Sequence record: MT446389.1
Direction: 5' to 3' (one strand)
DNA from: Escherichia virus TH11
DNA: 45,305 nt
How positions within the stretch are numbered: the first letter of the stretch is position 1; each line of letters starts with the position of its first letter. Of the stretch, positions 1,082 to 18,955 are shown one piece after another. The position numbers and the translations under genes are program-made. The notes beneath the pieces were generated by a model that did not search any database, was not told the DNA's origin, and was given only the letters and a program-made list of their open reading frames with translations.

Positions 1082-1099
1082 TTATGCAAGCGTGATATA

Positions 1100-1133
1100 G
1101 TCCCAGTGAGCTAAAACTTACTGGGACTTTTTT
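1100..1133 (+). terminator. hairpin plus T-run
   Basis: gtcccagtgag...cttactgggac followed by TTTTTT immediately before ATG 1134. Confidence 0.4.
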
Positions 1134-2144: not shown

Positions 2145-2160
2145 TACGAGGTGACACAGT

Positions 2161-2328: not shown

Positions 2329-2334
2329 ACAATC

Positions 2335-2361
2335 AAGCCCGGAATTAACCGGGCTTTTTAT
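2335..2361 (+). terminator. rho-independent terminator
   Basis: agcccgg-aattaa-ccgggct hairpin followed by TTTTTA. Confidence 0.5.
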
Positions 2362-2364
2362 TGC

Positions 2365-2394
2365 TTGACTTGCAACCAACATAGACTCCATACT
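2365..2394 (+). promoter_or_regulatory. candidate sigma70-like promoter with embedded TGCAACCAAC motif
   Basis: TTGACT at 2365-2370, 17-18 nt spacer containing TGCAACCAAC, -10-like CATACT. Confidence 0.35.
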
Positions 2395-2423
2395 GCGACC
2401 AATCAACGAGAGGAGTAATCAAG

Positions 2424-2504
2424 ATGGCACGTAAAGATATTTGGGTATTAGCGATCTGGACCACCGCGGCTTTTATCGGCATGGTTATTTGCGAATTGAT
2501 ATAG
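2424..2504 (+). CDS. small hydrophobic peptide (26 aa)
   Basis: Strong RBS GAGGAG about 8 nt upstream of ATG; own translation. Confidence 0.2.
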   Translation: MARKDIWVLAIWTTAAFIGMVICELI

Positions 2505-2565
2505 CCCGCCGCCATACGGACCGTGGTATATTGTCCCCGGTCCACTAATCAGGAATTAATTAAAT

Positions 2566-3708
2566 ATGCACCCGCAAACTAAAATTACCGATGAGCAATT
2601 GATCGCAGAAATTCAGGCAGGGACTACGGTTAAAGATATTGCGAAGAAATACGGGATTGCCCTACGCAATGTTTATATGCGGAAAGCCCGCCTATCGAAA
2701 AAAGGCATTGGACACGGCAACGATGCCGTAATCCGCAAGCGCGTTGCCGATGGCTTTGGGGTTAAGCGCGTATCGGCCCTGGTGCGCGGTAATGGCGAAG
2801 AGGTCATGTCGTGGATCATCACTGAGCAGGACAAGGAGCGCCAACTCGAAGCTATGCGCGCTGTTGTCGATGGTATGAACAGCGAAATCACACCGGCAGC
2901 GCCCGTAAACGCCCCGCCAGTACCGGTCCATGCACTGGACCTACTCAACCTGTACACCGTGTCCGACTTCCACCTGGGCATGTTGGCCTGGGGCGAGGAG
3001 ACTGGCGAAGACTGGGATATGGCGATTGCAGAAGACCTGTTTTACCGCTGGTTTGTCGAAGCCTTCGCACGCGCACCGGACGCAGGCACTGCCGTAATTA
3101 ATATCCTCGGTGATATGGCGCATTTTGATAGCCTTGATGCGGTCACCCCAGCCAGCGGGCACGTACTGGACGCGGATACCCGCTACCAGAAACTGGTCCG
3201 CTACATGATTCGCATGGTGCGCAACGTGGTAGACTTGGCACTGCAAAAACACCACAAAGTCAAACTTCTAATCGTCCAGGGGAATCATGACGAATCGGGC
3301 ATGATTTGGCTGGCTGAAATGTTCAACACCCTGTACGAGAACGAGCCGCGCGTCGATGTGGATACGTCCCCGGACGTATACAAAATGGTGCAACACGGCA
3401 AGACCACGCTGTTCTTCCACCACGGGCACAAAGCGCGCTTCGATGCTATTGAAACCGTCATGATTTCCAAATTCAGACAGGCGTTCGGGTCCAGCGAGTA
3501 CAGCTACGCGCATGTAGGCCACTTGCACCACCAGAAGATTGTAGAATCCCGCAACATGATTGTTGAACAACACCGGACCCTCGCCGCGAAAGACGCATAT
3601 GCCAGCCGCGGCGGTTGGATGTCCGGTCGTAGCGCCAACGTAATAACCTACAGCGCCAACTACGGCGAAGTAGCGCGCTTAACCATTAGCCCGGAAATGT
3701 TGAAATGA
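2566..3708 (+). CDS. calcineurin-like metallophosphoesterase with N-terminal HTH-like region
   Basis: Motifs SDFHLG, ILGDMAHFD, QGNHDE fit D-x-H / GD / GNH(D/E); N-terminus DIAKKYGIALRNVY is HTH-like. Confidence 0.55.
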   Translation: MHPQTKITDEQLIAEIQAGTTVKDIAKKYGIALRNVYMRKARLSKKGIGHGNDAVIRKRVADGFGVKRVSALVRGNGEEVMSWIITEQDKERQLEAMRAVVDGMNSEITPAAPVNAPPVPVHALDLLNLYTVSDFHLGMLAWGEETGEDWDMAIAEDLFYRWFVEAFARAPDAGTAVINILGDMAHFDSLDAVTPASGHVLDADTRYQKLVRYMIRMVRNVVDLALQKHHKVKLLIVQGNHDESGMIWLAEMFNTLYENEPRVDVDTSPDVYKMVQHGKTTLFFHHGHKARFDAIETVMISKFRQAFGSSEYSYAHVGHLHHQKIVESRNMIVEQHRTLAAKDAYASRGGWMSGRSANVITYSANYGEVARLTISPEMLK

Positions 3709-3917
3709 TTAGACAAGTATTCATGAGCACGCAGGCTGACCGCCTGAAGGAATTACGCAAACAACTCGAAGGCTTGCGCCGATTCGAACGAACGGCAGCG
3801 GCTATAGGCATGTCTATCAGCGAGCGGATCGAGATACTATCGCAAATACGCTACACAGAAGGCGCTATAAGCGAAGTAGAAAGCATGTTAACCCGATACT
3901 ACGGTCGCCCCGTTTAA
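3705..3917 (+). CDS. hypothetical protein
   Basis: 70-aa ORF, start overlaps upstream stop. Confidence 0.4.
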   Translation: MIRQVFMSTQADRLKELRKQLEGLRRFERTAAAIGMSISERIEILSQIRYTEGAISEVESMLTRYYGRPV

Positions 3918-3923
3918 CCATCC

Positions 3924-3951
3924 TAGCCCGCCGATTTGGTGGGCTTTTTTG
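3924..3951 (+). terminator. rho-independent terminator
   Basis: agcccgcc...gtgggct hairpin followed by TTTTTT. Confidence 0.45.
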
Positions 3952-4033
3952 TGCCTGTTATAATCCCCTTAGATGGCAGGGCCGTCTCTTATGTTGCCGA
4001 TGGTCGGCGCATATGCACAAAAGGGCTTATATC

Positions 4034-4585
4034 ATGGCAGAAATTAAAGTTAAGGGCCGACGCGCCAAACTGGACGGACGAGTAGCAGTAACCCCGCGCC
4101 GTAAACCAGGCGAGCAAACCGAGCATACCAATCTCGGACCTGAAATCGAGTACGGCAAGCGCCGTAAAGGCGGCAAATGTGGACGCCCTACTGACTACAG
4201 ATCCGTTTACTGCGACCAGCTTCGCCGCTATTTTGCCGACGCCGACGCCTGGCAGGTCAACTACTCCGATAAAGGCGCTGCGCAAGTAATCCCCCGCAAC
4301 AAAATGCCAACCTTCGGTCGTTTTGCCGCAGAAATTGGCGTAGGCGTTGCCTGCCTGTACCGCTGGGCGCGCGCGCATGAGGAGTTCGCCGAGGCGATGG
4401 CGGACGCTATGGAGCTACAGAAAACTTTCCTGATGGAAGCCGGTGGCGTGACCATCGCGGCAGGCTTCGCTACGTTCCTGCTTAAGGCAAACCACGGCGT
4501 CCGCGACGATGTGCCGCTGGATGACGACGAAGATGATAACGGCGACGTCGTAGTGGAACCTACCGGCAAAGGCCAGGGTGAATAA
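4034..4585 (+). CDS. terminase small subunit
   Basis: Directly upstream of and coupled to large terminase (ATG overlaps stop); basic N-terminus, GRPTDY motif, acidic C-tail; start trimmed to MAEIKVK. Confidence 0.5.
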   Translation: MAEIKVKGRRAKLDGRVAVTPRRKPGEQTEHTNLGPEIEYGKRRKGGKCGRPTDYRSVYCDQLRRYFADADAWQVNYSDKGAAQVIPRNKMPTFGRFAAEIGVGVACLYRWARAHEEFAEAMADAMELQKTFLMEAGGVTIAAGFATFLLKANHGVRDDVPLDDDEDDNGDVVVEPTGKGQGE

Positions 4586-5970
4586 TGCGTAACTATGCGG
4601 CAGAACACCGCGCACTGGAACGCGCGATCGCAAAGCGCAACCGACCGCCGCGCCCGACACGCGTTGCGCAGGCCGTACGCCTTTACCAGCCCGATTGCCT
4701 TCCCCACCAGGTGGAACTACTGCGCGACACAAAGACCAAAATACTCGGCCTGTGTTCCGGCTTCGGTGGCGGAAAGTCATGGGTCGCGGCGCGTAAGGTC
4801 ATCCAGCTTCTGACACTGAACCCGGGTCATGACGGCATCGTGACCGAGCCGACTATCCCACTCCTGGTTAAAATCATGTATCCGGAACTGGAGAAGGCTT
4901 TCGACGAGGCTGGATTCCGGTGGAAGTTCAATAAGCAGGACAAGATTTATAGCGTGCTGGTGAAAGGCAAATGGACCCGCGTTATTTGCGAGTCAATGGA
5001 GAACTACACACGTCTTATCGGTGTTAACGCCGCGTGGATTGTTGCCGACGAGTTCGACACCACGAAGCAAGACGTTGCAATGGCGGCGTATCACAAATTG
5101 CTCGGTCGTCTGCGTGCTGGCTTGGTACGCCAGTTCGTCATCGTGTCCACCCCGGAAGGCTACCGGGCGATGTACCAGATTTTCGAAGTGGAGAAGGACA
5201 GCCAGAAACGTTTGATCCGGGCGAAGACCACGGACAACCACCATTTACCGGCGGACTTTATAGACACGCTGCGCAGTCAGTACCCAGCTAACCTGATCGA
5301 CGCGTACCTGAACGGCCTGTTTGTTAACCTTACGTCGGGCGCGGTGTACAAGATGTTCAACCGCGAGGAGAACGCCAGCACCGAAGAAGTGCAGCCGGAC
5401 GACACACTGATTATCGGTATGGACTTTAACGTCACGAAAATGGCGGCGGTTGTGTATGTCAGACGGCAGCGCGTCACCGAAAACAAGGAGTTCCGCGACG
5501 AGATTCACGCGGTGGATGAATTTGTGGACCTGTTTGACACCCCGGCTATGATTGAGGCGATCGAGGAGCGCTACCCGGAACATTGTGCCGCCGGTAGGGT
5601 CGTCGTTTACCCGGATAGCAGCGGCAAATCCCGCAAGACGGTCAACGCGTCGTCGTCCGATATCGCACAACTGGAAGACGCTGGCTTCGAGGTGGAGTAT
5701 GACAGCGTTAACCCGCCTGTGAAAGACCGACTGATCGCGATGAATACGATGATGTGCAACTCGAAGGGCGTGCGCCAGTATTTTGTCAACCTGGATAAAT
5801 GCCCTACACTAGCGAAATGTCTGGAACAGCAGGTGTACGACCTGAAGAAAGGCGAACCGGATAAAACGGCCGGGGTGGACCACATGAATGATGCAGCGGG
5901 CTATCCAATTGCGCACCTGTTCCCAGTGATTCGTCCGATCGCCGTTGTTCCAACTGTAGACTTCTACTAA
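4585..5970 (+). CDS. terminase large subunit
   Basis: 461 aa, Walker A-like GFGGGKS, acidic nuclease-type C-terminal half, precedes portal. Confidence 0.85.
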   Translation: MRNYAAEHRALERAIAKRNRPPRPTRVAQAVRLYQPDCLPHQVELLRDTKTKILGLCSGFGGGKSWVAARKVIQLLTLNPGHDGIVTEPTIPLLVKIMYPELEKAFDEAGFRWKFNKQDKIYSVLVKGKWTRVICESMENYTRLIGVNAAWIVADEFDTTKQDVAMAAYHKLLGRLRAGLVRQFVIVSTPEGYRAMYQIFEVEKDSQKRLIRAKTTDNHHLPADFIDTLRSQYPANLIDAYLNGLFVNLTSGAVYKMFNREENASTEEVQPDDTLIIGMDFNVTKMAAVVYVRRQRVTENKEFRDEIHAVDEFVDLFDTPAMIEAIEERYPEHCAAGRVVVYPDSSGKSRKTVNASSSDIAQLEDAGFEVEYDSVNPPVKDRLIAMNTMMCNSKGVRQYFVNLDKCPTLAKCLEQQVYDLKKGEPDKTAGVDHMNDAAGYPIAHLFPVIRPIAVVPTVDFY

Positions 5971-5980
5971 GGAAACGAAC

Positions 5981-7501
5981 ATGACCGTTAACGTTGACAA
6001 CCAGCACCCCCTCTATGCGCGCATCGCGCCAGAGTGGAAAATGATCCGGGATTGTGTAGCAGGGGAGCGCGCTGTGAAGGCGTGCGGCCCTTTGTACCTG
6101 CCACATCCTGCCAGCGGCGACAATACTGACCCGAAATCACGGGCGCGGTATAAGGCGTATAAGCAACGCGCTGTATTCCTGAACGCCACCGCCCGCACAC
6201 TTAACGCGCTGTTAGGCGTTGCCTTTGCTAAACCGGTAAGTCTCGACCTTTCCGGGGCGATGGCGGACCTTATTGACGACGTAGACGGCAGTGGTATGCC
6301 GCTGCCGCAACTCCTGCGCGGTGCTATGTCTGAAGTTCTGCAATCAGGTCGTGCGGGCTTTATGGTGGACTACGATCGCCAGGCGCATTTTGATGAACTG
6401 GGTAACGTAGTACCGCAGACAGCCGCTGAGATGGCGTCACACCGCCCGCTTATCCGCCTGTACACGGCAGAACAGATCATCAACTGGCGGCAGACCCACG
6501 GAGCCGATACGCTGATTGTGCTGAAGGAGACGGACGAAATCAGCACCGAAGACCCGGACGACTTCGCAAACCACGAAGTAACAATCTGGACTGAATTGCG
6601 CATGATTAACGGTGCAGCACACGCCCGCCGCTGGTACTACAACGCCGACACGTCCGAGGTGCAAATGGACTTGCCGCGCGGATTCACCCGCACCGACCTG
6701 GTGCCGCTGGTGGATGCTACCGGTAAGGCACTGACACAACTTCCGTTTTGCTGGTGTGGCGCGGTGGACAACAACGCAACGCCAGACGCCGCTCCGCTGG
6801 CAGATATCGCGTCCATCAACATTAAGCACTACAACGCCGAAGCGGACGTCGCCGAGATCGCGCACATCGTGGGCCAACCTACCCTGGTTGCGACGGGCTT
6901 GACTCAATCATGGGCGGACAAGAACCTGAAGGGAGGCATTGCCCTCGGTGCGACTAAGGGCGTTATCCTGGGCCAGAACATGGACGCTAAACTGATCCAG
7001 GCGGAGGAGCGCAACTTGTCGGTTGCACTGTGTGAGCGTCGCGAGTTGCAAATGGCTAAACTTGGCGCAGCCCTGGTTGAGAAGGGGACCGCACCTAAGA
7101 CGGCAACCGAGGCGGCCTACGATGCGCAGACTGATAACAGTATCCTGTCGCTTATTGCCGGTAACGTTGAGAAGGCTTTCAACCGTGCGCTGCAAATCGT
7201 GCAGCTATTCACGGGCGACACCGCCGACCAGCGCGTAACGCTGAACAAGTTCTACACTGAAATCACGGTTGATGCGCAGCTTATGACCGCGATGATGTCG
7301 GGTGTGCAGACTGGTACGGTCCGACTTGCTGACTTCATCAAGTGGATGATGGCCCAGGGCGTCATTGACGACTCGCAAACCGTCGAGCAGGTGGAAGACG
7401 AATTGCGAAATCAGAATCCATTGCCTCAAATGTCCCCTGATGCGGTAGAATCTACCGAAGAAGACCCGGACAAGGTAGCGGACAATGGCGAGAACGATTA
7501 A
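5981..7501 (+). CDS. portal protein
   Basis: 506 aa immediately after large terminase; acidic C-terminus; RBS AAGGAAA. Confidence 0.8.
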   Translation: MTVNVDNQHPLYARIAPEWKMIRDCVAGERAVKACGPLYLPHPASGDNTDPKSRARYKAYKQRAVFLNATARTLNALLGVAFAKPVSLDLSGAMADLIDDVDGSGMPLPQLLRGAMSEVLQSGRAGFMVDYDRQAHFDELGNVVPQTAAEMASHRPLIRLYTAEQIINWRQTHGADTLIVLKETDEISTEDPDDFANHEVTIWTELRMINGAAHARRWYYNADTSEVQMDLPRGFTRTDLVPLVDATGKALTQLPFCWCGAVDNNATPDAAPLADIASINIKHYNAEADVAEIAHIVGQPTLVATGLTQSWADKNLKGGIALGATKGVILGQNMDAKLIQAEERNLSVALCERRELQMAKLGAALVEKGTAPKTATEAAYDAQTDNSILSLIAGNVEKAFNRALQIVQLFTGDTADQRVTLNKFYTEITVDAQLMTAMMSGVQTGTVRLADFIKWMMAQGVIDDSQTVEQVEDELRNQNPLPQMSPDAVESTEEDPDKVADNGEND

Positions 7502-8588
7502 TCAACATATGGCGGATCGCATGATCCGTCGTCACATCTTCACCCAGCGCCTGAGCAATGACCAGGCGCGGCGGGTGCTGGCTATGTGGGAGAAGTTCCG
7601 GCCCACGTTACTGGGTAAGCTGACCGAGTTACTTGATGGCAAAAAGTCCATGAGCAACAAGGCACTTACCACACTATTAACGCAACTCGACAAGACCGTC
7701 AAAACGGAACTGCGCGCCGAGTTTAAAGTGCTGGCGGAGAGCCTTCGGGAGTTCGCCGACACCGAGGCTGATTATCTCGCTGACACACTAACGGCAGCGA
7801 TCCAGCCCGCGGTCGCCGTGCCAGCGGTCGAAGTAGTGGGCGTTGTTACCGGCGCGCAGATTGCAGCGACGGCAATGAAAAACCAGTTCCAGGGTAACAC
7901 CATGATGCAATGGCCTGACTCACTTTCCGAGTGGACCAGGACGCAGATCGGCAATCAGGTGCGCGCTGGATTCATCCAGGGCAAGCCGACTATGGAAATT
8001 ATTGCGGACGTGAGGCGCGCGCTCGGCGGTCGAAGTGCGCAAGCTATCTCAAGCGTTGTTAAGTCCGCGGTCAACCACTATGCGGCGACCGCCCGCGAAC
8101 TAATGGTAAAAGCAAATGACGATATTCTCGAAGGTCGCCAATGGTTGGCTACATTGGACACGCATACTTCTCCCATGTGCCAGCTACGCGATCGCCTGTT
8201 TTATCCGGTTGATGTTACTCCCGACACCAAAGGAAAGCGCGGCGGGAAAGTGGTGGCGGGGTCACAATATGGCGCTGGTCCGGGCAAGCTGCATTATTGC
8301 TGCCGTTCGACGGAGACGTGGAAAGTCAAAGGTATGGAAGATTGGCCCAGTGGTAAGCGTCCGGCACTGAAGGCTGACGCGGGCAGATTGCTGAGCGAGC
8401 AGGTCGACGCGCAGACTGATTTCTTCTCATGGGTGCAGCGCCAGCCGCGCCATATTCTGGAAGAATTATACGGAGTGCAACGCGCCGACCAGATTATGCG
8501 CGGAGTGAAAGTGCCGAAGATGTTCACCGATTCCGGCGAACTAATGACTATCGCACAGCTTAAAAACCGGGGGTTATGGCGTGATTAA
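7485..8588 (+). CDS. head morphogenesis protein (Mu F / SPP1 gp7-like)
   Basis: 367 aa after portal, overlapping start; family assignment from position and composition. Confidence 0.6.
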   Translation: MARTINQHMADRMIRRHIFTQRLSNDQARRVLAMWEKFRPTLLGKLTELLDGKKSMSNKALTTLLTQLDKTVKTELRAEFKVLAESLREFADTEADYLADTLTAAIQPAVAVPAVEVVGVVTGAQIAATAMKNQFQGNTMMQWPDSLSEWTRTQIGNQVRAGFIQGKPTMEIIADVRRALGGRSAQAISSVVKSAVNHYAATARELMVKANDDILEGRQWLATLDTHTSPMCQLRDRLFYPVDVTPDTKGKRGGKVVAGSQYGAGPGKLHYCCRSTETWKVKGMEDWPSGKRPALKADAGRLLSEQVDAQTDFFSWVQRQPRHILEELYGVQRADQIMRGVKVPKMFTDSGELMTIAQLKNRGLWRD

Positions 8589-8910
8589 ATATGCAGCGAT
8601 TGGACTGGTTATCGGTCTGGCGGTAGGATTCTGGCTAGGCGACTCCTATCGTACTGGCGTAGTGGCGGAGGCGGCGCAAGAAGCGCAAGCCCAAGCCCAA
8701 CGGCAGCAAACTAAAGTTGTTGAGCGCTCCGTGCAGGCCGAACAGGCCCGCGACGTAGAATACCGGACTATAACGAAAGAGGTTGTTAAATATGTTACGC
8801 GCCCTAACCGCCCTGATTGTAGTTTTGATGCTGAGCGCGTGCGGATCAAGCAACGTGCCGTTGATGCCGCTAACGGAGTCGGCACTGCGACCGCCGTGCA
8901 AGTTCGATAG
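8581..8910 (+). CDS. putative i-spanin (Rz-like)
   Basis: N-terminal TM helix IGLVIGLAVGFWLG then Q/A/E-rich coiled coil; lipoprotein ORF embedded in +1 frame. Confidence 0.4.
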   Translation: MIKYAAIGLVIGLAVGFWLGDSYRTGVVAEAAQEAQAQAQRQQTKVVERSVQAEQARDVEYRTITKEVVKYVTRPNRPDCSFDAERVRIKQRAVDAANGVGTATAVQVR

Positions 8911-9022
8911 CCCGTCCGCAGACCCCGACGAAGACTTGCTGGTCGATGTTAAGAATATGGAATGTGGTGCGAAGCTGAGGGCGCAAGTGCTGGAGTTGCA
9001 GAAAATAATTCGGGGGCCGTGA
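8783..9022 (+). CDS. putative o-spanin (Rz1-like lipoprotein)
   Basis: Signal peptide with lipobox LSAC, Pro-rich mature part, embedded in and extending beyond 8581..8910. Confidence 0.4.
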   Translation: MLNMLRALTALIVVLMLSACGSSNVPLMPLTESALRPPCKFDSPSADPDEDLLVDVKNMECGAKLRAQVLELQKIIRGP

Positions 9023-9036
9023 TGGCCCCCTTTTTG
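9012..9036. terminator. hairpin terminator between convergent genes
   Basis: gggggcc-gtgat-ggccccc followed by TTTTTG. Confidence 0.5.
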
Positions 9037-9801
9037 TTAGCGCGGAATACCGCAAATCTCGTTTAGCGTCTTCACGTCCAGCGCCACCGCCGTGGACTTC
9101 GGCTTATCCGGGTATGGAATAAACTGTTCAACTTCAGGCCACGCCTTGATCAGTTTCTTATCGGTATTGTGCATATCCAGTACGCCGGTAACTGTTAGTT
9201 TGAACGCGTCATACTTCGCACGCAATTCGCGGCGGGCCTTGTCGTTGCGATCTAGGCGCTTGCAGAAGTCGTGGTCTGCCGGGTAGTCTACGCGACCGCG
9301 CGGAAGATATATCGGCAGCGATTTTCCGTCCTCGTCCACTTCGCACACTGAAGCCAGCATAACTTCCTCGTACCCCGGTACGATATCACCGAGATCGGGA
9401 GATAGCTTGTTCAAATATTTCTCTTCCCAGTATCCGCGGTGCAGGCGGTATCGGTATCCATCGCCGCTCAATGATACGGTGCGAACATTACCGCCTGCGT
9501 TGATATCGAATCCGGCGCTATAAACGCTGCCGATGCCTTTTGGCCGGTCGGAGTTATAGCTATACGTCGCCTTGTCGGTGTAAACGCTAACGCCATACAT
9601 CTGCGACTGGTTATCGCGGATTTCTGCGATATATGCGCGTAACTCGGCGAACGTGCGAATGCCTTCCGGCATACAGTCCAGCGTAATGGCGTACGCCAAG
9701 TCGCGAGAGTCCATCATGATGGATTTTGCTTCGGTCGCGATTTCATGGTCGCGCAGGATGTTAGCCAGAATCTTGTTTTTAACGTCTTTTGTCAGTCTCA
9801 T
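9037..9801 (-). CDS. hypothetical protein, reverse-strand moron in head module
   Basis: 254 aa from internal ATG at 9801 with RBS GAGGA; track ORF to 10248 has a low-complexity extension antisense to the scaffold gene. Confidence 0.55.
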   Translation of the reverse strand: MRLTKDVKNKILANILRDHEIATEAKSIMMDSRDLAYAITLDCMPEGIRTFAELRAYIAEIRDNQSQMYGVSVYTDKATYSYNSDRPKGIGSVYSAGFDINAGGNVRTVSLSGDGYRYRLHRGYWEEKYLNKLSPDLGDIVPGYEEVMLASVCEVDEDGKSLPIYLPRGRVDYPADHDFCKRLDRNDKARRELRAKYDAFKLTVTGVLDMHNTDKKLIKAWPEVEQFIPYPDKPKSTAVALDVKTLNEICGIPR

Positions 9802-9823
9802 TTTTGCGTCCTCGTTGTTGGTG

Positions 9824-9846
9824 TGCAACCAATATATGCAACCAAT
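9824..9846. promoter_or_regulatory. tandem TGCAACCAAT motifs in divergent intergenic region
   Basis: Two copies 13 bp apart between minus gene 9037..9801 and plus gene 9950..10651. Confidence 0.45.
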
Positions 9847-9949
9847 ACGCGGATTGCAAGCGAATTTTGCGATTATTTTTATCACTGATAATATTAGAGG
9901 CGTGAAGTCGAGCGGGTGGCCCGCTCTGCCACAATCCCAGGGGGATAGC

Positions 9950-10651
9950 ATGAAACTTACTAAAGCAGAATATGACGCGTTGCCGGAAGGTATGAAGGCG
10001 CTTTTTGTTGCCGATGGTGACGGGTATAAATCAACGTTCATGACCGCAGAAGAAGTACAGGCGGAGATCAAGGGTCTGAAAGACAACAACGCGAAGCTGG
10101 TGAGCGAGAAGAAAGCAGAAGCTGAACGTCGCGCCGAAGCCGAGCGCCTTGCGAAAGAGAAAGAGGAAGCCGCCGCGCGCAAAAATGGCGACCTCGAAGC
10201 GATCGACAAGTCTTGGAAAGATAAGTTTGCGAAACACGAAGCAGACACATCGGGAAAAATCGAAGCCTATCGCAAGCAGATCCACGATCTAACCATCGGC
10301 AGCGCTGCCAAAGACCTGGCGTCGAAGCTGTTCGGTAAGAATGCGGGCATCATGCAACGCCACGTAATGGACCGCCTGACGCTGGAAGACGGCGAAGACG
10401 GCAGCTTGAAAGTGCGTGTCTTGCAGGATGGCAAACCGTCCGCGCTGACTATGGAAGAGCTTGAAAAAGAGTTCCGTAATAACGCCGATTTCGCATCCGT
10501 CCTGGCCGGCACGCCAGCAGGAGGCGCTCCTAGCAAACCGACGCAGGTTGTCGAAGATGTGAAGTCTAAAATTACGATGGGCCATAGCTTCGGTATCACC
10601 GATCTCACCAAACAGGCCGGGGATATCATCGCTAAAATGGGCGACGAGTAA
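9950..10651 (+). CDS. putative scaffolding protein
   Basis: 233 aa, K/E/A-rich coiled coil, immediately upstream of major capsid gene; start trimmed to MKLTKAEYD. Confidence 0.55.
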   Translation: MKLTKAEYDALPEGMKALFVADGDGYKSTFMTAEEVQAEIKGLKDNNAKLVSEKKAEAERRAEAERLAKEKEEAAARKNGDLEAIDKSWKDKFAKHEADTSGKIEAYRKQIHDLTIGSAAKDLASKLFGKNAGIMQRHVMDRLTLEDGEDGSLKVRVLQDGKPSALTMEELEKEFRNNADFASVLAGTPAGGAPSKPTQVVEDVKSKITMGHSFGITDLTKQAGDIIAKMGDE

Positions 10652-10654
10652 GCG

Positions 10655-10681
10655 GATTGCCCGCGAAAGCGGGCAATTTTG
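10655..10681 (+). terminator. hairpin, possible attenuator
   Basis: attgcccgc-gaaa-gcgggcaat followed by TTTT. Confidence 0.4.
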
Positions 10682-10748
10682 CGAGCGCGTAAAACTAAGG
10701 TAACATTAATGCCACTGGGCGAATGCTCACAACTCAAAGGATTTCGAT

Positions 10749-11849
10749 ATGTCTTTAACAGTGTTCCAGCGTAAACTCGTTACCGCGGTTACGCAAATGA
10801 TCCCCGACAACCTGAACGTTTTCAACGCCGCCGCCAATGGCGCTGTTGTTCTCGGTACTGGTGAAGTGCTGAAGGACGTTATTGAGAAAATGTCCGTAGG
10901 CTTGATCGCCAACCTCGTTACCGACCGTAACGCCTACGCCCCCGTCGGCACTCCGGCGACCGCGAAAGTGCTGGCGCGTATGCTAACCAACTCGGTTAAC
11001 CTTTCCGCAAAAGTGGGTCCGGTAGCAATCACTAAGGCTATGATGGCTAAGATCGAAACCAACGTTAACAGCGTTGCGGCTGAGATTGCGGCACAGGCTA
11101 CTCAAGCGATTATGCTGCACTACCTGAAAGCTGGTATCGGCGCAAGTAAAGCGGCGATCGAAAGCAACGCAGCGGCAAAATACACCCAACCGGCGCGCGT
11201 TGACGGCGTTGGCGGTCGTACCTTCCCGACCCTGGCAGACTTCCCGCTGGCGGCTTCTAAGTTCGGCGATCAGGCGTCTTTGATTAAGTCTTGGTTTATG
11301 GACGGCGTTACCTGGGCAAACTTCATTGCGTACCAGGCACTCCCTTCCGCTGAACAGGTATTCGCAATTGGCGATCTCCAGGTAATGGGTGATGGCCTGG
11401 GCCGTCGCTTCATTATCTCCGATGCCGCTGCCGATGCTATGGGGGCGGGTAACATGCTGGGTCTGGTCCCTGGCGCGGTTGCAGTTACCACCAACGGCCT
11501 CGATATGCTGGCGCAGGAGAAAGGCGGTAACGAGAACATCGAGCGCTGGTGGCAGGGCGAGTTCGACTTCAACGTGGCTGTTAAAGGCTACCGTCTGAAG
11601 GCGTCCGCTCGAACCCCGATCGAAGGTGTGCGCTCGTTCAAACTGGACGATATTACCACTTCCGCTAACTGGGAACTGGACCAGGGCCAGGTAGACAACG
11701 CACCGGCAACCGTTCAGGATGTTGGCGCTGTGGGTGATGGCGATACTAAAGGTCGTCGTAAGACCCAGGCCGCACAGGCAGTGCCTACCCGTCACATCAA
11801 GGAAACCGCGGGCGTACTGGTTACGCTGACGGCTACCACCGCGTCTTAA
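10749..11849 (+). CDS. major capsid protein
   Basis: 366 aa after scaffold and followed by a strong terminator; position and size typical. Confidence 0.75.
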   Translation: MSLTVFQRKLVTAVTQMIPDNLNVFNAAANGAVVLGTGEVLKDVIEKMSVGLIANLVTDRNAYAPVGTPATAKVLARMLTNSVNLSAKVGPVAITKAMMAKIETNVNSVAAEIAAQATQAIMLHYLKAGIGASKAAIESNAAAKYTQPARVDGVGGRTFPTLADFPLAASKFGDQASLIKSWFMDGVTWANFIAYQALPSAEQVFAIGDLQVMGDGLGRRFIISDAAADAMGAGNMLGLVPGAVAVTTNGLDMLAQEKGGNENIERWWQGEFDFNVAVKGYRLKASARTPIEGVRSFKLDDITTSANWELDQGQVDNAPATVQDVGAVGDGDTKGRRKTQAAQAVPTRHIKETAGVLVTLTATTAS

Positions 11850-11865
11850 TCGACGCACATCCCAA

Positions 11866-11893
11866 AGGGGCGGGCTTATGCCCGCCTTTTTTA
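11866..11893 (+). terminator. rho-independent terminator
   Basis: ggcgggc-ttat-gcccgcc followed by TTTTTT. Confidence 0.55.
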
Positions 11894-11907
11894 TAGGAGT
11901 GAATACA

Positions 11908-12408
11908 ATGTATGGCGACCCGCAAACCTTTGTCGATTATGCCACTGCGCGAGGCGTTGAAATTACGCTGGGCGATGCAACGCGACACATTACCATCGTT
12001 AATGACTTCCTTAACGGCATCAACTGGATCGGCGAACAGGCGGACCAGACAGGAATAGACGCATGGCCCCGCATCAATTACCCATCGGACGGGAAGCCGG
12101 TGCGCGACACGCTAACCGAAGCCGTGGCGGTAGTGCCTGTCGGGCAAATCGTAGACTTTGCATCAATCCCCGTTGCCGTTGAGCAAGCTGTTTACCGGCT
12201 GGCGCTGTTGGTGGCGGACGAGATCGATATTTCTCCTGTCGGCGATGGTAAAGAGACTATTCGCGAAACGGTCGGCCCGATCACGATGGAATATGACCCG
12301 GCGTCGATTGGTAGCGGGGTGTCGTTCCCGTGGTGGGATGGCTTGTTAGGCCACTGGGTTGATTCAGGCGGCAACGCCGCAGGCAATTTCGACGTATACA
12401 GGGGGTGA
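11908..12408 (+). CDS. putative head-tail connector / head completion protein
   Basis: 166 aa; start trimmed to MYGDPQ with RBS GGAG; synteny only. Confidence 0.4.
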   Translation: MYGDPQTFVDYATARGVEITLGDATRHITIVNDFLNGINWIGEQADQTGIDAWPRINYPSDGKPVRDTLTEAVAVVPVGQIVDFASIPVAVEQAVYRLALLVADEIDISPVGDGKETIRETVGPITMEYDPASIGSGVSFPWWDGLLGHWVDSGGNAAGNFDVYRG

Positions 12409-12409
12409 T

Positions 12410-12529
12410 ATGAATCCTGCATTACTCGCAGCTATTATCGCTGCAAATACTAAACAGCCGACGGAACAAGAACCGGAGCCAGAACCAGTACCACCAGCAC
12501 AGGAGAGTGAAGAAGATGGCGGGCTTTAA
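12410..12529 (+). CDS. small hypothetical protein (39 aa)
   Basis: ATG at 12410 after GGGGG RBS; own translation. Confidence 0.2.
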   Translation: MNPALLAAIIAANTKQPTEQEPEPEPVPPAQESEEDGGL

Positions 12530-12869
12530 TTACGCGGGGTTAAAGCGGAAAGTCAATCCGCTGATTAAAAAGTTCGGCATGACGGCTACGGTGACGCGTC
12601 CGGGATCGGTTGACCGCGTAGACGGCGACGAAGTGATAATCCCGCCAACGTCGTTCGACGTCATCGGTCTTCGCGAGGAGTACAAGCCTAGCGAGATCGA
12701 CGGAACGCGTATCGTTGCCGGTGATGTGAAGTTTTTATGTCGGGCGGTTGAGCAATTGCGGGTGGGAGACCTGGTTAACCTGGACGGCACTGACTACCGG
12801 GTCGTCAACCCTAACCCACTGCAACCGGCTGGCACTACCATGCTGTTTCAACTACAGCTAAGGGGCTAA
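12516..12869 (+). CDS. putative head-tail joining protein
   Basis: 117 aa; RBS AGGAGAG before ATG 12516; synteny only. Confidence 0.4.
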   Translation: MAGFNYAGLKRKVNPLIKKFGMTATVTRPGSVDRVDGDEVIIPPTSFDVIGLREEYKPSEIDGTRIVAGDVKFLCRAVEQLRVGDLVNLDGTDYRVVNPNPLQPAGTTMLFQLQLRG

Positions 12870-12870
12870 C

Positions 12871-13464
12871 GTGGCTGAAGTCTACTCATTCGCCGCCACT
12901 ATTGCTACGTGGGTGGATAAGACGAAGGAGAACAACGACAAGGCGGTGCGGGCGTACGGTATGCAAATACTCGGACGCCTTATTGAGATCTCCCCGGTGG
13001 GCGACCCCCGCCGGTGGAAAATTAACAAGGCTTACGCGCTTGCACGCGAACACGCGAACAAGGTGAACGCCGCACAGCGCCGCAAGAACGGCGGCAAACT
13101 GAAGCGCGGGCAGAAGAAGCACGCCAGTGTGCTCATCTCATTCAAAACTAAAAACGGCAACGTCACGTTCCGCCAGCGTGGCTGGGCCGCGAAGAATTAC
13201 ACCGGTGGGCGCTTCCGGGGAAACTGGCAGGTTACGTTCGACCGCCCGGCTGTCGGCGCTATCGACCGCGTGGACAAGGCCGGAACGGCAACATTAGCCG
13301 CGGGGCGTGAAGTGCTGGCGCATTACGATTCCGGGGAATACGGGTCGATCTGGTTTACTAACAATGTGCCGTATGCGCAGCGACTTGAGTATGGCTGGAG
13401 TAAACAAGCGCCTGCGGGTATTGTTCGCGTCGTAGCGGCAGAAATTAATTCGAAGGTGAAATAA
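12871..13464 (+). CDS. putative neck / tail completion protein
   Basis: 197 aa, GTG start per track; synteny only. Confidence 0.4.
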   Translation: MAEVYSFAATIATWVDKTKENNDKAVRAYGMQILGRLIEISPVGDPRRWKINKAYALAREHANKVNAAQRRKNGGKLKRGQKKHASVLISFKTKNGNVTFRQRGWAAKNYTGGRFRGNWQVTFDRPAVGAIDRVDKAGTATLAAGREVLAHYDSGEYGSIWFTNNVPYAQRLEYGWSKQAPAGIVRVVAAEINSKVK

Positions 13465-13886
13465 TGAGCAATACTCTAATCCGCAAGGCGCTTAACAGCG
13501 TAGTAGAAGAATTATCGGTTAGCCTGAGCACTAGCACGCGCCCGATAAAGGTTAACTGGGAGAACGTGAGTGGCGACCACGCAAACGGCAGCGGTGTCTA
13601 CCTGGAACCATATCTGCTTCCGGCCCCTACCCAATTTGTGGGCTTCCAGCAGAAGGGCCGGATCTATGCAGGCGTGTATCAGATTGCCGTGGTATTTCCT
13701 GCGGGCACGGGCACACAGTATGCGAGCGAACTGGCTGACGCCATCGCGACGTCTGACAAGTGGCAGGCCGTAAGGCTTACCGGTGCTGCATTCCAGCTTC
13801 AAGACGCGCCATACACCAGTTCGGTGATTGAGGATGTTGATCGCGCCCGCATCGTGGTTACAGTGCCCTATTCCTGTTGTGCCTGA
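13464..13886 (+). CDS. putative tail terminator protein
   Basis: 140 aa directly upstream of major tail protein; synteny only. Confidence 0.4.
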   Translation: MSNTLIRKALNSVVEELSVSLSTSTRPIKVNWENVSGDHANGSGVYLEPYLLPAPTQFVGFQQKGRIYAGVYQIAVVFPAGTGTQYASELADAIATSDKWQAVRLTGAAFQLQDAPYTSSVIEDVDRARIVVTVPYSCCA

Positions 13887-13947
13887 TTTGGCGCAATTCT
13901 GCGCGTGCTGTATCATTAAACCGTATATCTAAACAGGAGCGTTCATT

Positions 13948-14673
13948 ATGGGTTATCAACTTCCTAACGGGTCCAGCGTCCAGATTGGGTCCGTACTGGG
14001 CAGCGGCATCGCTGTTACGGCAGCTACCAACGCCGCCGCATCAATCTCTGACCTTACGCAAGGTTGCGTAATTACCTGCGCGGCTTCGCATGGTCTGGTT
14101 GTTGGCGACGTTGTTATGTTCACTAAAACCCCGTGGGTCCGAGCGCTTAATCGCGCATTCATCGTGGGTAAAGTAGCCGAGAACGACGTGACGCTGGCGC
14201 GCTTCGACTCCTCTGACGTCACAAAATACCCGACCGGCGCTTTCAACGCAGGCACTCCGGGCGAAGTGGTGAAGGTGTCGAGCTTTATCGACTTCCCTTT
14301 CATTACTAACGTTGCCGTGTCGGGTGGCGACCAGCAGACTACTACCTTCCAGCCGTTGCAGGTGAACACCGCAATCAGTCTTAACACCACGAAAAACCCG
14401 TTGGTACAGACTTACACCTTCACCCACGACGAAGAAGACCCGATCCGCCCAATCCTGGAAGACCTGGACGACACACAGAAAACCACTGTGATTAAGTTCA
14501 CTAACCCAGCGGCAGCAAGCGGCAAAGGTGAGATCCGTATCTACCCGGCAAAGGTATCTTTCCAGAAGATTCCTTCCGCTGAAGTAAACAACGTGGAAAC
14601 TGTACAGTCCACTCTGACCATGCAGTCTGATATGGTTATCTACCGTAAGGATCTGGTCGAGGCGTTGTCTTGA
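13948..14673 (+). CDS. major tail protein
   Basis: 241 aa followed by strong terminator and then chaperone genes; lambda V-like position. Confidence 0.6.
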   Translation: MGYQLPNGSSVQIGSVLGSGIAVTAATNAAASISDLTQGCVITCAASHGLVVGDVVMFTKTPWVRALNRAFIVGKVAENDVTLARFDSSDVTKYPTGAFNAGTPGEVVKVSSFIDFPFITNVAVSGGDQQTTTFQPLQVNTAISLNTTKNPLVQTYTFTHDEEDPIRPILEDLDDTQKTTVIKFTNPAAASGKGEIRIYPAKVSFQKIPSAEVNNVETVQSTLTMQSDMVIYRKDLVEALS

Positions 14674-14702
14674 TTTGGTCGCTTAAATAGCGAGTGTTAA
14701 TA

Positions 14703-14730
14703 TGGGGCCAGCACGGCCCCTTTTTTTTTA
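14703..14730 (+). terminator. rho-independent terminator
   Basis: ggggcc-agca-cggcccc followed by nine T. Confidence 0.55.
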
Positions 14731-15108
14731 TTGGAGAATACTACAATGGCTAAAGCACCACTCTTCACACTTGACCCAAAGCCGACCTTTAAGCTGCCGA
14801 TTGAGATCCCGCGCCCTGGTGAGAACGAACCCGGCAAAATGACGTTTACCGTACGCCACCGCCCGATCGACGAATTTTCGCAGACCATGCAGGACACTGA
14901 ACGCAAGCTGTCGGAATATGACGACAATGATCCGGACGGCTTTAATGTTATGGTTGAGGCCATCATGCACGTCGCCGAAGGCTGGAATCTGCCGGACGAA
15001 TTTAACGCGGAGAACGTCCGCCGCCTGGTGGTCAACTATCCACGCGCGTTCGGTGTGTTCCACACGTCGTACTATCTCGAACTGATGGGGTTGCGTGAAA
15101 AAAACTAA
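14731..15108 (+). CDS. tail assembly chaperone (G-like)
   Basis: 125 aa between major tail and tape measure; ends two codons after a slippery heptamer. Confidence 0.65.
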   Translation: MENTTMAKAPLFTLDPKPTFKLPIEIPRPGENEPGKMTFTVRHRPIDEFSQTMQDTERKLSEYDDNDPDGFNVMVEAIMHVAEGWNLPDEFNAENVRRLVVNYPRAFGVFHTSYYLELMGLREKN

Positions 15109-15422
15109 TTGAGGCGGCGCGACGCTTTTATGGTCCGCCGCCACCCTCCGAAGATTTAGCCGCAAGTTTATGGGGTGCGGCCCCCGAAGATGTTTGTCCG
15201 CCTGTTGCGCTATGGCCCGACAACGCGAAGATAGTCGCAGTCTTCACAGATTGCGCCACGCAATGGCGCACCGGATTTGGTGGCGCATACGGCATCGACT
15301 ACGGCGTGCTGGAGTGGTTATTTAAGATGCACGGTATCGAAAACGAGCAGCGCGCGTTTAAAGATATCAAGCTAATGGAACGAATCGCGCTTGATGAGAT
15401 GGCGCAGCAGAACCCCGCATAA
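14731..15422 (+). CDS. tail assembly chaperone GT-like fusion via -1 frameshift
   Basis: -1 frame stays open with no start codon from 15099 to stop at 15420-15422 (about 107 codons); slippery A_AAA_AAC at 15099-15105. Confidence 0.55.
15099..15142 (+). promoter_or_regulatory. programmed -1 frameshift signal
   Basis: Heptamer AAAAAAC in X_XXY_YYZ register; 7-bp stem GGCGGCG/CGCCGCC starting about 8 nt downstream. Confidence 0.5.
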
Positions 15423-15780
15423 TGCAGCGGGACGTCCCGTTTTGTCCCGCCTCTGTAAAACTGCATACCTACTCACACCCACTGCATAAACCAAAAACGG
15501 GACAAACGGGACGTCCCGATCTGTCCCGCCATGTAAATGTGCATACCTATTCAGATTTCGTGCATAAAGTAAGCGGGACAAAAAGCGGGACAAACAAGGA
15601 GCGGGACAAAGCGGGACAGCACCCCGTCCCCGCCAGTGCTGCCGCGGGTTGCGGCCGATCGGGACAAGCGGGACAAACCCCAGTCTTTCAGACTAGACGG
15701 GGGTCAATGGCCCCCCTCGTCTGAGACTGAATAAGGTTTGTTTTAAATTCGCTGATACAATGTCAATCGGCAACTGCATA
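15266..15780. repeat. tandem duplication unit 1 (515 bp)
   Basis: Identical to 15781-16295; track ORFs at +515 offset give identical translations; both junctions read directly. Confidence 0.85.
15426..15729. repeat. GCGGGACAAA repeat array copy 1 with terminal stem-loop
   Basis: At least 12 GGGAC(A/G) cores in both orientations, two GCGGGACGTCCCG palindromes, repeated TGCATACCTAYTCA and TGCATAAA, then GC-rich hairpin at 15680-15729. Confidence 0.75.
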
Positions 15781-16295
15781 GCGCACCGGATTTGGTGGCG
15801 CATACGGCATCGACTACGGCGTGCTGGAGTGGTTATTTAAGATGCACGGTATCGAAAACGAGCAGCGCGCGTTTAAAGATATCAAGCTAATGGAACGAAT
15901 CGCGCTTGATGAGATGGCGCAGCAGAACCCCGCATAATGCAGCGGGACGTCCCGTTTTGTCCCGCCTCTGTAAAACTGCATACCTACTCACACCCACTGC
16001 ATAAACCAAAAACGGGACAAACGGGACGTCCCGATCTGTCCCGCCATGTAAATGTGCATACCTATTCAGATTTCGTGCATAAAGTAAGCGGGACAAAAAG
16101 CGGGACAAACAAGGAGCGGGACAAAGCGGGACAGCACCCCGTCCCCGCCAGTGCTGCCGCGGGTTGCGGCCGATCGGGACAAGCGGGACAAACCCCAGTC
16201 TTTCAGACTAGACGGGGGTCAATGGCCCCCCTCGTCTGAGACTGAATAAGGTTTGTTTTAAATTCGCTGATACAATGTCAATCGGCAACTGCATA
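15781..16295. repeat. tandem duplication unit 2 (515 bp)
   Basis: Perfect copy of 15266-15780; junction caactgcata|gcgcaccgga. Confidence 0.85.
15941..16244. repeat. GCGGGACAAA repeat array copy 2
   Basis: Identical to 15426-15729 as part of the 515-bp duplication. Confidence 0.75.
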
Positions 16296-16312
16296 AAAAA
16301 GGGGACTGCATA

Positions 16313-18955
16313 ATGGCAGATCAAGCGGCAGGCATCACGCTGAAGGCTGATGTTGCACAAATCAGAACGGCAAATACTGTGCTGGACTCCTTCGCACAGA
16401 AATCCGAGAACACAGAAAACAAGGTTAAGAAATTAAACGACACCCTCGGCAAATCCAAAAAGGTCACTGGCGACGCCGCTGGTGGAATGGAGAAGCTGGC
16501 GAACGAATCGCAGCGCGCCGCCGACGGCATGACGAAACAGGAGAGACTTGCCAACAGGTTAGGCATGTCGACCAAAAACCTGGGCTTTGCCTCGCGTAAC
16601 GCCGCATTCCAGTTACAGGATATCGCAGTTACGCTTGAGATGGGTATGCCTGTTCACCGCGTCATGCTTCAGCAGTTACCGCAGCTAACTGGGGCGTTCG
16701 GCGGTCTTGGTAACACGCTGCGTTTTGTTGCGGGCTTCCTCGGTCCGGTAGGGATCGGCATTGCAGCACTAACGGCAACGTTAGGCGTAGGAGTGGCGGT
16801 TACGTCCCGTGCCGAAAACCAGGTCGCAGCGCTTAACAAGACGCTGGCGCTGTCCGGTAACATTTCCGGCCTCACTGCAAACCAGATCCTTGTGCTATCC
16901 GAGAACGCCGAGCGCATGGGCGGGTCATTCCGCAAGACGCGTGACACAATCCAGGCGTTGGCGGCGGCGGGTGTGAAAGCGGGTGCGGACTTCGGCACGC
17001 TGGCGAAAGTGGTGAATGACTTTGCGAAGGTGTCCAGCCAGCCGGTCGAGGATGTGGTCGCGGCGGTGGCGAAGCTGTCTACAGACCCGGTAGGCGGCTT
17101 GCGAGCATTGGCTGATAAGTATCACGTCGTAAACGAAGCGCAGATCCAGCAGGTGCAGTCGCTTGTGGATATGGGTCGCGAAACCGAAGCGGTGGCGCTG
17201 GCTAACAAAACAGCCGCAGCGTCGTTTACCACTATGACCAACGATATTAAGTCCAACATGGGTACGCTTGAGCGTTCGATGAACGTCGTCACATCGGCAG
17301 CTAAATCAATGTGGGATGCCATCCTGGATGTTGGACGCGCGCAGTCCTCTAATGAGTCTGAGATGAAAGCGCGTGAATCATTGCAGAGGCTGACCACGGC
17401 TTACTATGCCGAGATGAAAGCGGTAAACGCTGCCGGTGGGGTGATGACCGAAGCGCAGAAAGCGCGTATTAACATGCTTTACAGCGAACTGGTAGCCCAG
17501 GAGAAGGTGGTGGCATCGCTCACCCTGCGCAACCGTGCCGAGCGAGACAACGCAAATGCCGCGGACGAAGCAGCAAAGGCGAACGAAGAGGCAAACCGCA
17601 CCGCCCGCGACCGCGCTGCGTTTGAGAAGGAGTACGCAACCAACGCGAAGCGGCGAGCCGACGAGATCGCCCGCCTCAATTTGCTGAATAAGCGCGGTGT
17701 TATTAACGAGAAAGAGCTTGCCGAGGCGGTGAAGCAGGTAAACGAGCGTTACAAAGACCCCGCCCCGAAGAAGGCCGCCGCTGTTCGAGTCGATGCCGGG
17801 CTGAAAATGCTGGAAGTCGCGCGAAGCGAATTAGCCCAGCTTCGTGAGTCTGGAAAGCAGATCGAAGCCAACTATTCGACGCAGACCCGCACGCAACGCG
17901 CGCAAGCGGCCCTTAACAAGCTGATTGCCGACAACGAGCAGTTAATCGCTGCGAGCAAAGAAAGGGCGCTGACGGCAGCAGAGAAGCAGCAAATGGCGGG
18001 ATTCGAGGCGGTTAAATCTGTACGCGAGCAGATCGTCGAAGAAGCCAAATTGCTGGACGCGAAAGAGAAGCAGGTCAAGGCGCACGCGCAGATCGACGCC
18101 TTCGTTAAGAACCAGAACGCCGAGCTAAAAGCCACCGCGGCGGGCTATGCGCTTTCCACTCGCGAAGCGGCTAACCTGCGCGAAGAATTGCAGCTAATTG
18201 ACCGCCTTAAGCGGGTGGGCGCTAGTGATACCGATATTGATCTGGCGGTGTCTAAGCTGCGCGAAGTGCAGGAAGCACAGACCGGTGCTAACGCCTCGCT
18301 ATGGGATGGATTAAGCCGCGGGCTTAAGGATAGCGTTGATGAAATGGGTAACGGCTATACGCAGATGGCGTCACTAACAAAATTCACGTTCGGCGCTATG
18401 CAGGACACGATGAACGAGTTTTTCGAGACTGGCAAGCTGAACGCAAAGGATATGGTTAAGTCCATCCTGAGCGAATTAATCAAGCTGGCTACATCGCAGG
18501 CGTTCAAGTCCATCGTTAGCGCTTTCGGTGGCGACGGCGGCAAAAACGGATTGTTCGGTGCTATCTTCTCCGGCCTGACTAAGAATGCGGACGGCGGAGC
18601 GTACGCAGGGGGCAATCTCGCGGCCTATTCGGGGCAAGTGGTAAGCCAGCCTACCTTTTTCAGTTACGGCGTCCAGGCGTTCGCTAAGGGTGCTGGATTG
18701 ATGGGGGAGGCTGGACCCGAGGCCATCATGCCGCTGAAGCGCGGGCCAGACGGGAAACTTGGCGTTGCCGCTGCCGGTGTAGGCGGGGGGATGATTGTAA
18801 CGACCAACGTTAACATGGGGACCGGTAAGACGGATACCAGTGTTAGCGGACCAGACCCGCGCACCGCGCAGGCGTTCGGAAAGCAAATCACCGAGTCGGT
18901 CAAGGCCGAGATCGTGAAGGCGACGAAACCGGGTGGTGTACTTTACAAACGATGA
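16313..18955 (+). CDS. tail tape measure protein
   Basis: 880 aa, A/Q/E/K-rich coiled coil, Gly-rich C-terminus, between chaperone and tip genes. Confidence 0.85.
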   Translation: MADQAAGITLKADVAQIRTANTVLDSFAQKSENTENKVKKLNDTLGKSKKVTGDAAGGMEKLANESQRAADGMTKQERLANRLGMSTKNLGFASRNAAFQLQDIAVTLEMGMPVHRVMLQQLPQLTGAFGGLGNTLRFVAGFLGPVGIGIAALTATLGVGVAVTSRAENQVAALNKTLALSGNISGLTANQILVLSENAERMGGSFRKTRDTIQALAAAGVKAGADFGTLAKVVNDFAKVSSQPVEDVVAAVAKLSTDPVGGLRALADKYHVVNEAQIQQVQSLVDMGRETEAVALANKTAAASFTTMTNDIKSNMGTLERSMNVVTSAAKSMWDAILDVGRAQSSNESEMKARESLQRLTTAYYAEMKAVNAAGGVMTEAQKARINMLYSELVAQEKVVASLTLRNRAERDNANAADEAAKANEEANRTARDRAAFEKEYATNAKRRADEIARLNLLNKRGVINEKELAEAVKQVNERYKDPAPKKAAAVRVDAGLKMLEVARSELAQLRESGKQIEANYSTQTRTQRAQAALNKLIADNEQLIAASKERALTAAEKQQMAGFEAVKSVREQIVEEAKLLDAKEKQVKAHAQIDAFVKNQNAELKATAAGYALSTREAANLREELQLIDRLKRVGASDTDIDLAVSKLREVQEAQTGANASLWDGLSRGLKDSVDEMGNGYTQMASLTKFTFGAMQDTMNEFFETGKLNAKDMVKSILSELIKLATSQAFKSIVSAFGGDGGKNGLFGAIFSGLTKNADGGAYAGGNLAAYSGQVVSQPTFFSYGVQAFAKGAGLMGEAGPEAIMPLKRGPDGKLGVAAAGVGGGMIVTTNVNMGTGKTDTSVSGPDPRTAQAFGKQITESVKAEIVKATKPGGVLYKR

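Follow-up and report, generated by a model that had tools for sequence, protein, structure and literature searches.

The stretch of DNA analysed here (the window) is the complete 45,305-bp record MT446389.1 of Escherichia virus TH11, with a GC content of 54.45%, and the subject of this analysis is a perfect 515-bp tandem repeat located inside its tail operon, between the genes for a tail assembly chaperone and the tape measure protein. The features described below are on the plus strand unless stated otherwise. The chaperone gene G (14746 to 15108, 120 amino acids, Pfam Phage_TAC_4, 3e-22) carries a canonical −1 slippery heptamer, A_AAA_AAC (15099 to 15105), three codons ahead of its stop, and the −1 frame T extension that starts there runs to a TAA at 15420 to 15422 (15099 to 15422 overall). 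The fused G/T product matched both Phage_TAC_4 (3e-22) and DUF1799 (3.3e-20). G/GT is flanked by the tail tube gene (Phage_tail_3) and by the tape measure gene (16313 to 18955, 880 amino acids), which matched TMP_2 (2.5e-43) and Tape_meas_lam_C. In most relatives, G and the T-frame piece are annotated as separate small open reading frames (ORFs) and not as a frameshift product.

Positions 15266 to 15780 and 15781 to 16295 are identical at 515 of 515 positions and directly adjacent, with a period of 515 and no gap. This identity had been reported by an earlier, sequence-only reading of the window, together with two pairs of identical ORFs (15372..15593/15887..16108 and 15422..15724/15937..16239), and all of it was borne out. 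The period-515 identity stops at both limits of the unit and does not extend one base beyond, and hence there is zero microhomology at the junction. The repeat is the sole exact tandem run of ≥60 nucleotides (nt) in the window and also its sole long repeat. A perfect repeat of this length is beyond chance, and what has to be decided is whether the phage itself carries it or the record alone.

Each unit comprises the last 52 codons of the T extension and ca. 360 nt of non-coding DNA with a whole array of CGGGACA motifs and a hairpin, and ends 17 nt short of the ribosome-binding region and ATG (16313) of the tape measure gene. The translations and Pfam matches agree with the anatomy first proposed from the letters alone (GT extension, array, and hairpin, ahead of the tape measure gene). 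Copy 1 (15266 to 15780) is genuine sequence, with the last 52 gpGT codons, the non-coding region A, the hairpin, and a promoter-like element, and it is collinear with the upstream flank in the sister phage Escherichia virus TH13, in all other relatives, and in the contig SRR11772945_3025 from the Logan assemblies. Copy 2 (15781 to 16295) is a redundant block, which we read as the un-trimmed second end of the original linear contig. It is missing from TH13 (otherwise identical at 44,790 of 44,790 positions), from 60 of 60 sampled relatives, and from 10 of 10 metagenome contigs. The novel junction between the copies (15763 to 15798) joins TCAATCGGCAACTGCATA on the left to GCGCACCGGATTTGGTGG on the right; at other extents, its letters read GGCAACTGCATA followed by GCGCACCGGATTT, and CAACTGCATA followed by GCGCACCGG. 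The junction creates an in-frame TAG (15779 to 15781) directly ahead of the copy 2 T fragment, which would thus be an untranslated relic. No exact match to the junction 36-mer was found in three contig collections (viral, metagenome, and genome).

Sibling record, relatives, and project reads

TH11 is listed as a sister phage (MT446389, 45,305 bp, 54.4% G+C) in the paper describing TH13, in which the methods given are MiSeq sequencing (2x250, insert 350 to 450), the Geneious de novo assembler, and PhageTerm (PMC7498436). A megablast search with positions 14700 to 16400 retrieved 158 phage records, essentially all of them Dhillonvirus (HK578/SO-1-like virulent coliphages), and only one of the 158, TH13 (MT446391), was ≥99% identical. 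The TH13 record and the window share 100% identity and have three structural differences, namely the start point, the copy number of the 515-bp unit, and a tandem block of TH13's own. The TH13 record starts at window position 3915 (3,914 nt further on than the window start) and contains one copy of the 515-bp unit (window 15266 to 16295). Its own perfect tandem block, with a period of 587, lies 19 kb away at window-equivalent 34368 to 34956 (TH13 29939 to 31114), where the window is single copy. TH11 minus 515 bp and TH13 minus 587 bp are both 44,790 bp long and, after rotation, have 0 mismatches. In the absence of any point difference between the two phages, two independent fixed duplications of ca. 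0.5 kb at separate sites would be needed if both blocks were real; one genome padded at two places by the pipeline is a far simpler reading. The two ends of the window (45305 to 1) are contiguous in TH13 and in the Logan contig SRR11772945_3025, so that the window represents a complete, circularly permuted genome with an arbitrary start, 16 nt ahead of an ATG.

Redundancy of this kind was not confined to the two sister records. Exact overlaps between record ends were found in TH16 (668 bp), TH20 (807 bp), TH49 (98 bp), and TH50 (833 bp) from the same study, all four of which belong to Autographiviridae phages. A 40,945-bp unit is 100% identical in TH49 and TH50, which are circular permutations of each other with unequal overlap lengths, indicating that their record ends are assembly breakpoints and not T7-type physical ends or true terminal repeats. 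By analogy, the record ends of TH16 and TH20 are probably of the same kind. Altogether, un-trimmed redundancy of 98 to 833 bp, equivalent to 0.4 to 3 read lengths, was present in six of the six study records examined (TH11, TH13, TH16, TH20, TH49, and TH50), and an overlap of 515 bp is compatible with 2x250-nt reads and 350- to 450-bp inserts. Since the redundancy of TH11 and TH13 is internal, these two records must have been rotated after assembly without trimming.

To survey the relatives, a 200-bp stretch with the junction at its centre was compared with 60 records spaced evenly down the ranking of 158. In all 60, the two halves of the junction were found 515 to 540 bp apart and in reversed order, which corresponds to a single copy, and the contiguous junction was present in none of these 60 sampled Dhillonvirus records. 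Similarly, in 10 of 10 metagenomic or Logan contigs encoding an identical G protein, the gap between G and the tape measure gene was ca. 690 to 710 nt, versus 1,205 nt in the window. Comparison with relatives had been put forward in the sequence-only reading as a check on the duplication, and it turned up no second case (60/60 records and 10/10 contigs with a single copy).

A smaller block of similar appearance is found in another Dhillonvirus, UDS3lw, in which an exact internal tandem block with a period of 127 is located at 43697 to 43951, inside region B (described below). The largest k-mer used by SPAdes is 127. The UDS3lw block indicates that a circular-contig overlap can turn internal in a Dhillonvirus. 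For this phage (PQ658967), SPAdes was used for the assembly and PhageTerm, a program that outputs a "reorganized" genome (PMC5557969), for the analysis (PMC13348001). The UDS3lw record starts at window-equivalent 44515, ca. 115 nt past the region B hairpin, which may reflect a pac call by PhageTerm.

Reads of the project were represented by run SRR11772945 of the same BioProject, which is the run of either TH11 or TH13 and for which a Logan assembly at k=31 was available. Two contigs of this assembly matched the window at 100% identity and followed the order of the single-copy form. Contig SRR11772945_3025 (16,522 bp) corresponds to window 44374 to 45305 followed by 1 to 15590, and it passes position 15266 unbroken and continues 324 nt into the unit. 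Contig SRR11772945_3507 (21,308 bp) extends from window 16220 (equivalent to 15705) to 37527; it spans the boundary between 16295 and 16296 unbroken, with 76 nt of the unit included, and is single copy over the site of the 587-bp block of TH13. If the tandem duplication were real, the unit start would have two predecessors and the unit end two successors in the k=31 de Bruijn graph. Such branch nodes would stop contigs within ≤30 nt of both boundaries, whereas these contigs run on. Junction 31-mers were likewise absent from the fetched stretches of contigs _3025 and _3507. Whichever phage SRR11772945 belongs to, its reads contradict the duplication in that record, and the duplication in the other would fall by analogy.

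Origin of the tandem block

We estimate a probability of about 0.93 that the 515-bp duplication is an un-trimmed overlap between contig ends, carried inside by re-orientation of the record, and not a feature of the phage. This assessment is based on the fact that TH13, otherwise identical, and all relatives have a single copy, on the same class of redundancy in every study record checked, the k-mer-sized artefact in another Dhillonvirus, and the unbranched boundaries in an independent assembly of project reads. The genome of the phage would be a circularly assembling, headful-packaged Dhillonvirus genome of 44,790 bp. The linear contig produced by the de novo assembler would have run slightly over once round the circle, leaving the same 515 bp at both ends (contig start at 15266, contig end at 15780), and re-orientation of this contig to a new start with the overlap untrimmed would have brought the copies together in the interior, in head-to-tail order. 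As for the step behind the rotation, we infer that it was most likely the "reorganized" output of PhageTerm or a manual operation.

The choice of site is not accidental. Region A and its paralogue, region B (both described below), have in common exact stretches of 39 nt (15561 to 15599 and 44229 to 44267) and 36 nt (15699 to 15734 and 44368 to 44403), and the Logan contigs end exactly in them. These exact 36- to 39-nt repeats make region A a hotspot for contig ends, which agrees with an artefact. At least five other Dhillonvirus records break in or near it: Maverick (ends 15598/15724), CHD5UKE2 (15577/15703), and PNS1 (15310/15433), each with a 127-nt overlap, Kente (15625/15711, with ca. 85 bp missing), and BEK2-2 (start at 15282, with ca. 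0.5 kb missing, including most of G and T). The overlaps of Maverick, CHD5UKE2, and PNS1 carry the 127-nt signature of SPAdes, marking these ends as raw contig ends. The inferred contig ends of TH11 (15266 and 15780) bracket this hotspot block, each within ca. 300 nt.

Several points weigh against this explanation. The rotating step is not documented, and the four podovirus records of the study are unrotated, so the pipeline was not uniform. The evidence from reads directly refutes the duplication in one of the two records, and for the other it counts only by analogy. Moreover, a phage duplicated here would be viable, given that GT, the tape measure gene, and its upstream signals are intact. 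The sequence-only reading had left two possibilities, a very recent event or an assembly artefact, and had developed the first; the second is strongly favoured by the sibling, the study records, the relatives, and the read assembly. The alternative that this reading had itself named, in which the assembly expands the locus or joins redundant ends, was the right one.

A genuine, very recent tandem duplication in TH11, originated by illegitimate recombination or replication slippage, is the best surviving alternative, although we consider it very unlikely. It would have left an untranslated T relic and a second array, hairpin, and promoter-like element ahead of the tape measure gene. The block is, after all, present in the sequence as deposited, and such a phage would be viable, with GT intact, the tape measure gene retaining its upstream signals, and the relic closed off by the junction TAG. 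A headful phage could also take the additional 1.15% of DNA, and PhageTerm predicts headful packaging for relatives. However, TH13 differs otherwise only in its start point and its own 587-bp block, which would require two fixed duplications and no point mutation; the same type of redundancy appears in all the study records checked; no relative or metagenomic contig has the block; the junction lacks microhomology; and the k=31 graph of the project run is unbranched at both boundaries. Furthermore, 2x250 reads with 350- to 450-bp inserts could not have established that a perfect tandem repeat of 515 bp has exactly two copies. The junction was not recovered from any other assembly, isolate, or read set among the three collections, the 60 relatives, the 10 contigs, and the fetched Logan stretches. 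The relic copy of the T C terminus and the doubled binding array envisaged at first are not supported either, both being single copy in TH13, in the relatives, and in the assembly of project reads.

A second alternative, which we judge even less probable, is that the two copies represent direct terminal repeats, or terminally redundant packaged DNA, joined by rotation, with region A as the packaging site and 15266 and 15780 as physical ends. It deserves attention given that region A is an array of short repeats, like some pac or cos regions, that PhageTerm can "complete" a genome with repeats (PMC5557969), and that the starts or ends of several Dhillonvirus records fall in region A or close to it.

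As a site of physical ends or packaging that would account for the duplication, region A was rejected, since the break points differ between records (15310/15433, 15577/15703, 15598/15724, and 15625/15711) and three of them have the SPAdes signature. In addition, the redundancy of the identical TH13 genome is 19 kb away, and the terminal-repeat output of PhageTerm would put the repeats at the record ends and not in the interior. Published PhageTerm analyses give headful packaging for UDS3lw (PMC13348001), as also published for Opt-212, or a 10-nt 5' cos end (ATCTTAAGGG) for EE09 (PMC10673088), and none of them gives a 0.5-kb terminal repeat. The packaging mode of Dhillonvirus is described inconsistently, as cos for EE09 and as headful in other reports.

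Finally, a lysate heterogeneous at region A, by A/B exchange or copy-number variants, from which a duplicated minority was assembled, can practically be dismissed: regions A and B are direct paralogues (87% identity, exact 36- to 39-nt stretches) and the assembly-break hotspot could reflect real graph branches, but the unit limits (15266 and 15780) are not at the common stretches, so that A/B exchange would not give this junction, the Logan contigs are unbranched at the boundaries, and the exact A/B k-mers are enough to explain the hotspot.

Regions A and B

The DNA affected by the redundancy is of interest in itself. Region A (15423 to 15797 in single-copy terms) is non-coding and begins with a repeat array (copy 1 at 15423 to 15679, copy 2 at 15938 to 16194). 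The array contains nine CGGGACA motifs and further CGGGAC half-sites, both direct and inverted, two CGGGACGTCCCG palindromes, and paired TGCATA boxes 21 nt apart. In the whole window, CGGGACA was observed 26 times against an expectation of 6.1 ± 2.5, and 24 of the 26 occurrences are within regions A and B. Direct repeats of the motif recur at spacings of 9 to 16 nt, along with inverted pairs or palindromes (CGGGACGTCCCG), an arrangement more suggestive of binding sites for a protein on DNA than of a single RNA structure. Among seven Dhillonviruses, the CGGGAC(A) motifs and TGCATAA boxes were invariant while the spacers varied, and the indels within region A were of 1, 2, 9, and 10 nt, i.e., not multiples of 3. 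The ORF that crosses the array (15422 to 15724, 100 amino acids) was considered as a gene and rejected: it had no Pfam match and is not recorded as a called product, its ATG is not conserved, and the indels break its frame in relatives.

Next to the array is a conserved GC-rich hairpin (copy 1 at 15680 to 15728, copy 2 at 16195 to 16243), with a counterpart in region B. Predicted RNA folding gave −28.5 kcal/mol (z −3.7) for the A copy and −35 kcal/mol (z −4.3) for the B copy. In the A and B copies of 11 phages, the stem was invariant and the loop alone varied; as the stems were invariant in all copies, there was no countable covariation. The hairpin was also considered as a canonical intrinsic terminator, but it was not called by the terminator scan and has no U-tract directly after the stem, and this assignment was left unproven. 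A scan of the whole window with Rfam retrieved no family at gathering score. On the 3' side of the region A hairpin, ca. 50 nt upstream of the tape measure ATG, there is an extended −10-like element, TGATACAAT (16268 to 16276, other copy at 15753 to 15761), invariant in seven Dhillonviruses. Its resemblance to the consensus TGnTATAAT makes TGATACAAT a putative promoter.

Region B (44207 to 44403) has an array and a hairpin and is a paralogue of the right half of region A, with 87% identity over 198 bp. The A/B module thus appears twice per genome in the same orientation; one instance separates GT from the tape measure gene, and the other follows the primase/helicase gene. Our best guess is that region A might act as a regulated terminator/promoter node inside the tail operon, and region B might be a protein-binding module beside a probable origin or early regulatory region.

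Directly past the primase/helicase stop, positions 44073 to 44210 contain a 54-bp direct repeat (beginning AGATTAAATTTTGCGCGCATTGGTTGCC), and further copies of ATTGGTTGCC and an AT-rich stretch are located ahead of region B. The segment from 44073 to 44210 looks like an iteron-type origin or an early regulatory region. Elsewhere, two imperfect tandem repeats (85 to 87% matches) were found in minus-strand ORFs, at 37492 to 37609 (54 bp x 2.2) and 40781 to 40957 (90 bp x 2.0). The end of contig _3507 (37527) falls inside the 54-bp x 2.2 repeat.

Implications and comparison with known systems

The main value of these results concerns data quality. MT446389 (TH11) and MT446391 (TH13) appear to be one 44,790-bp genome, each with a different spurious tandem block, and redundancy of this type is also present in other records of the study and in at least one further Dhillonvirus record (UDS3lw). 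Blocks of this sort make genomes look larger than they are, create phantom ORFs, and can pass for duplications, terminal repeats, or doubled regulatory sites. Were the duplication real, it would be a modest curiosity, the doubling of a conserved cis-element (CGGGACA array, hairpin, and promoter-like element), and would provide a natural copy-number variant with which to ask about the role of regions A and B, whether in regulator binding, in replication, or in the initiation of packaging. The part worth experimental attention is regions A and B themselves, which are strongly conserved, non-coding, present twice per genome, and without an assigned function.

Among the known systems to which the locus can be compared, the chaperone genes resemble the lambda-like G/GT arrangement in every respect considered: the heptamer near the end of G, the T-type domain in the −1 frame, and the position between tube and tape measure genes are all matched here, so a frameshift product is predicted. 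Regarding the non-coding module, an array plus hairpin with a second copy after the primase/helicase gene matches the definition of the Dhillonvirus "region A/B" element. This element is not new, as it was already annotated in the Sodalis phage SO-1 (GQ502199, a 2009 record), where "region A" and "region B" are given as repeat_region features with direct, inverted, and palindromic repeats and mutual similarity. Positions 15423 to 15780 of the unit are the homologue of SO-1 region A, and positions 44207 to 44403 lie within the homologue of region B. Beyond the GenBank annotation of SO-1, we found no paper in the literature testing the function of the array. Unlike the window record, SO-1 and all the other members have one region A.

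The tandem block itself shares with genuine duplications of tailed phages the head-to-tail arrangement, a viable gene order, and a size that fits a headful capsid, but it differs from them in having no independent support for its junction, a sibling with a different "duplication," and no branch in the read assembly. With T7-like direct terminal repeats or headful redundancy it has in common two identical copies of a few hundred base pairs that would lie at the ends of a linear permutation; however, its position is not common to the identical sibling, published reports describe the genus as headful and circularly assembling, and the copies are internal. The closest resemblance is to un-trimmed overlaps of circular contigs, with identical head-to-tail copies that lack microhomology, a size between one and a few read lengths, a block that is missing from genomes otherwise identical or nearly so, and redundancy at other positions in records from the same pipeline; the 127-bp block of UDS3lw is a case within the genus. 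The TH11 unit differs from the 127-nt overlaps left by SPAdes in its length of 515 bp, as expected from an overlap-layout assembler (Geneious) versus a de Bruijn one.

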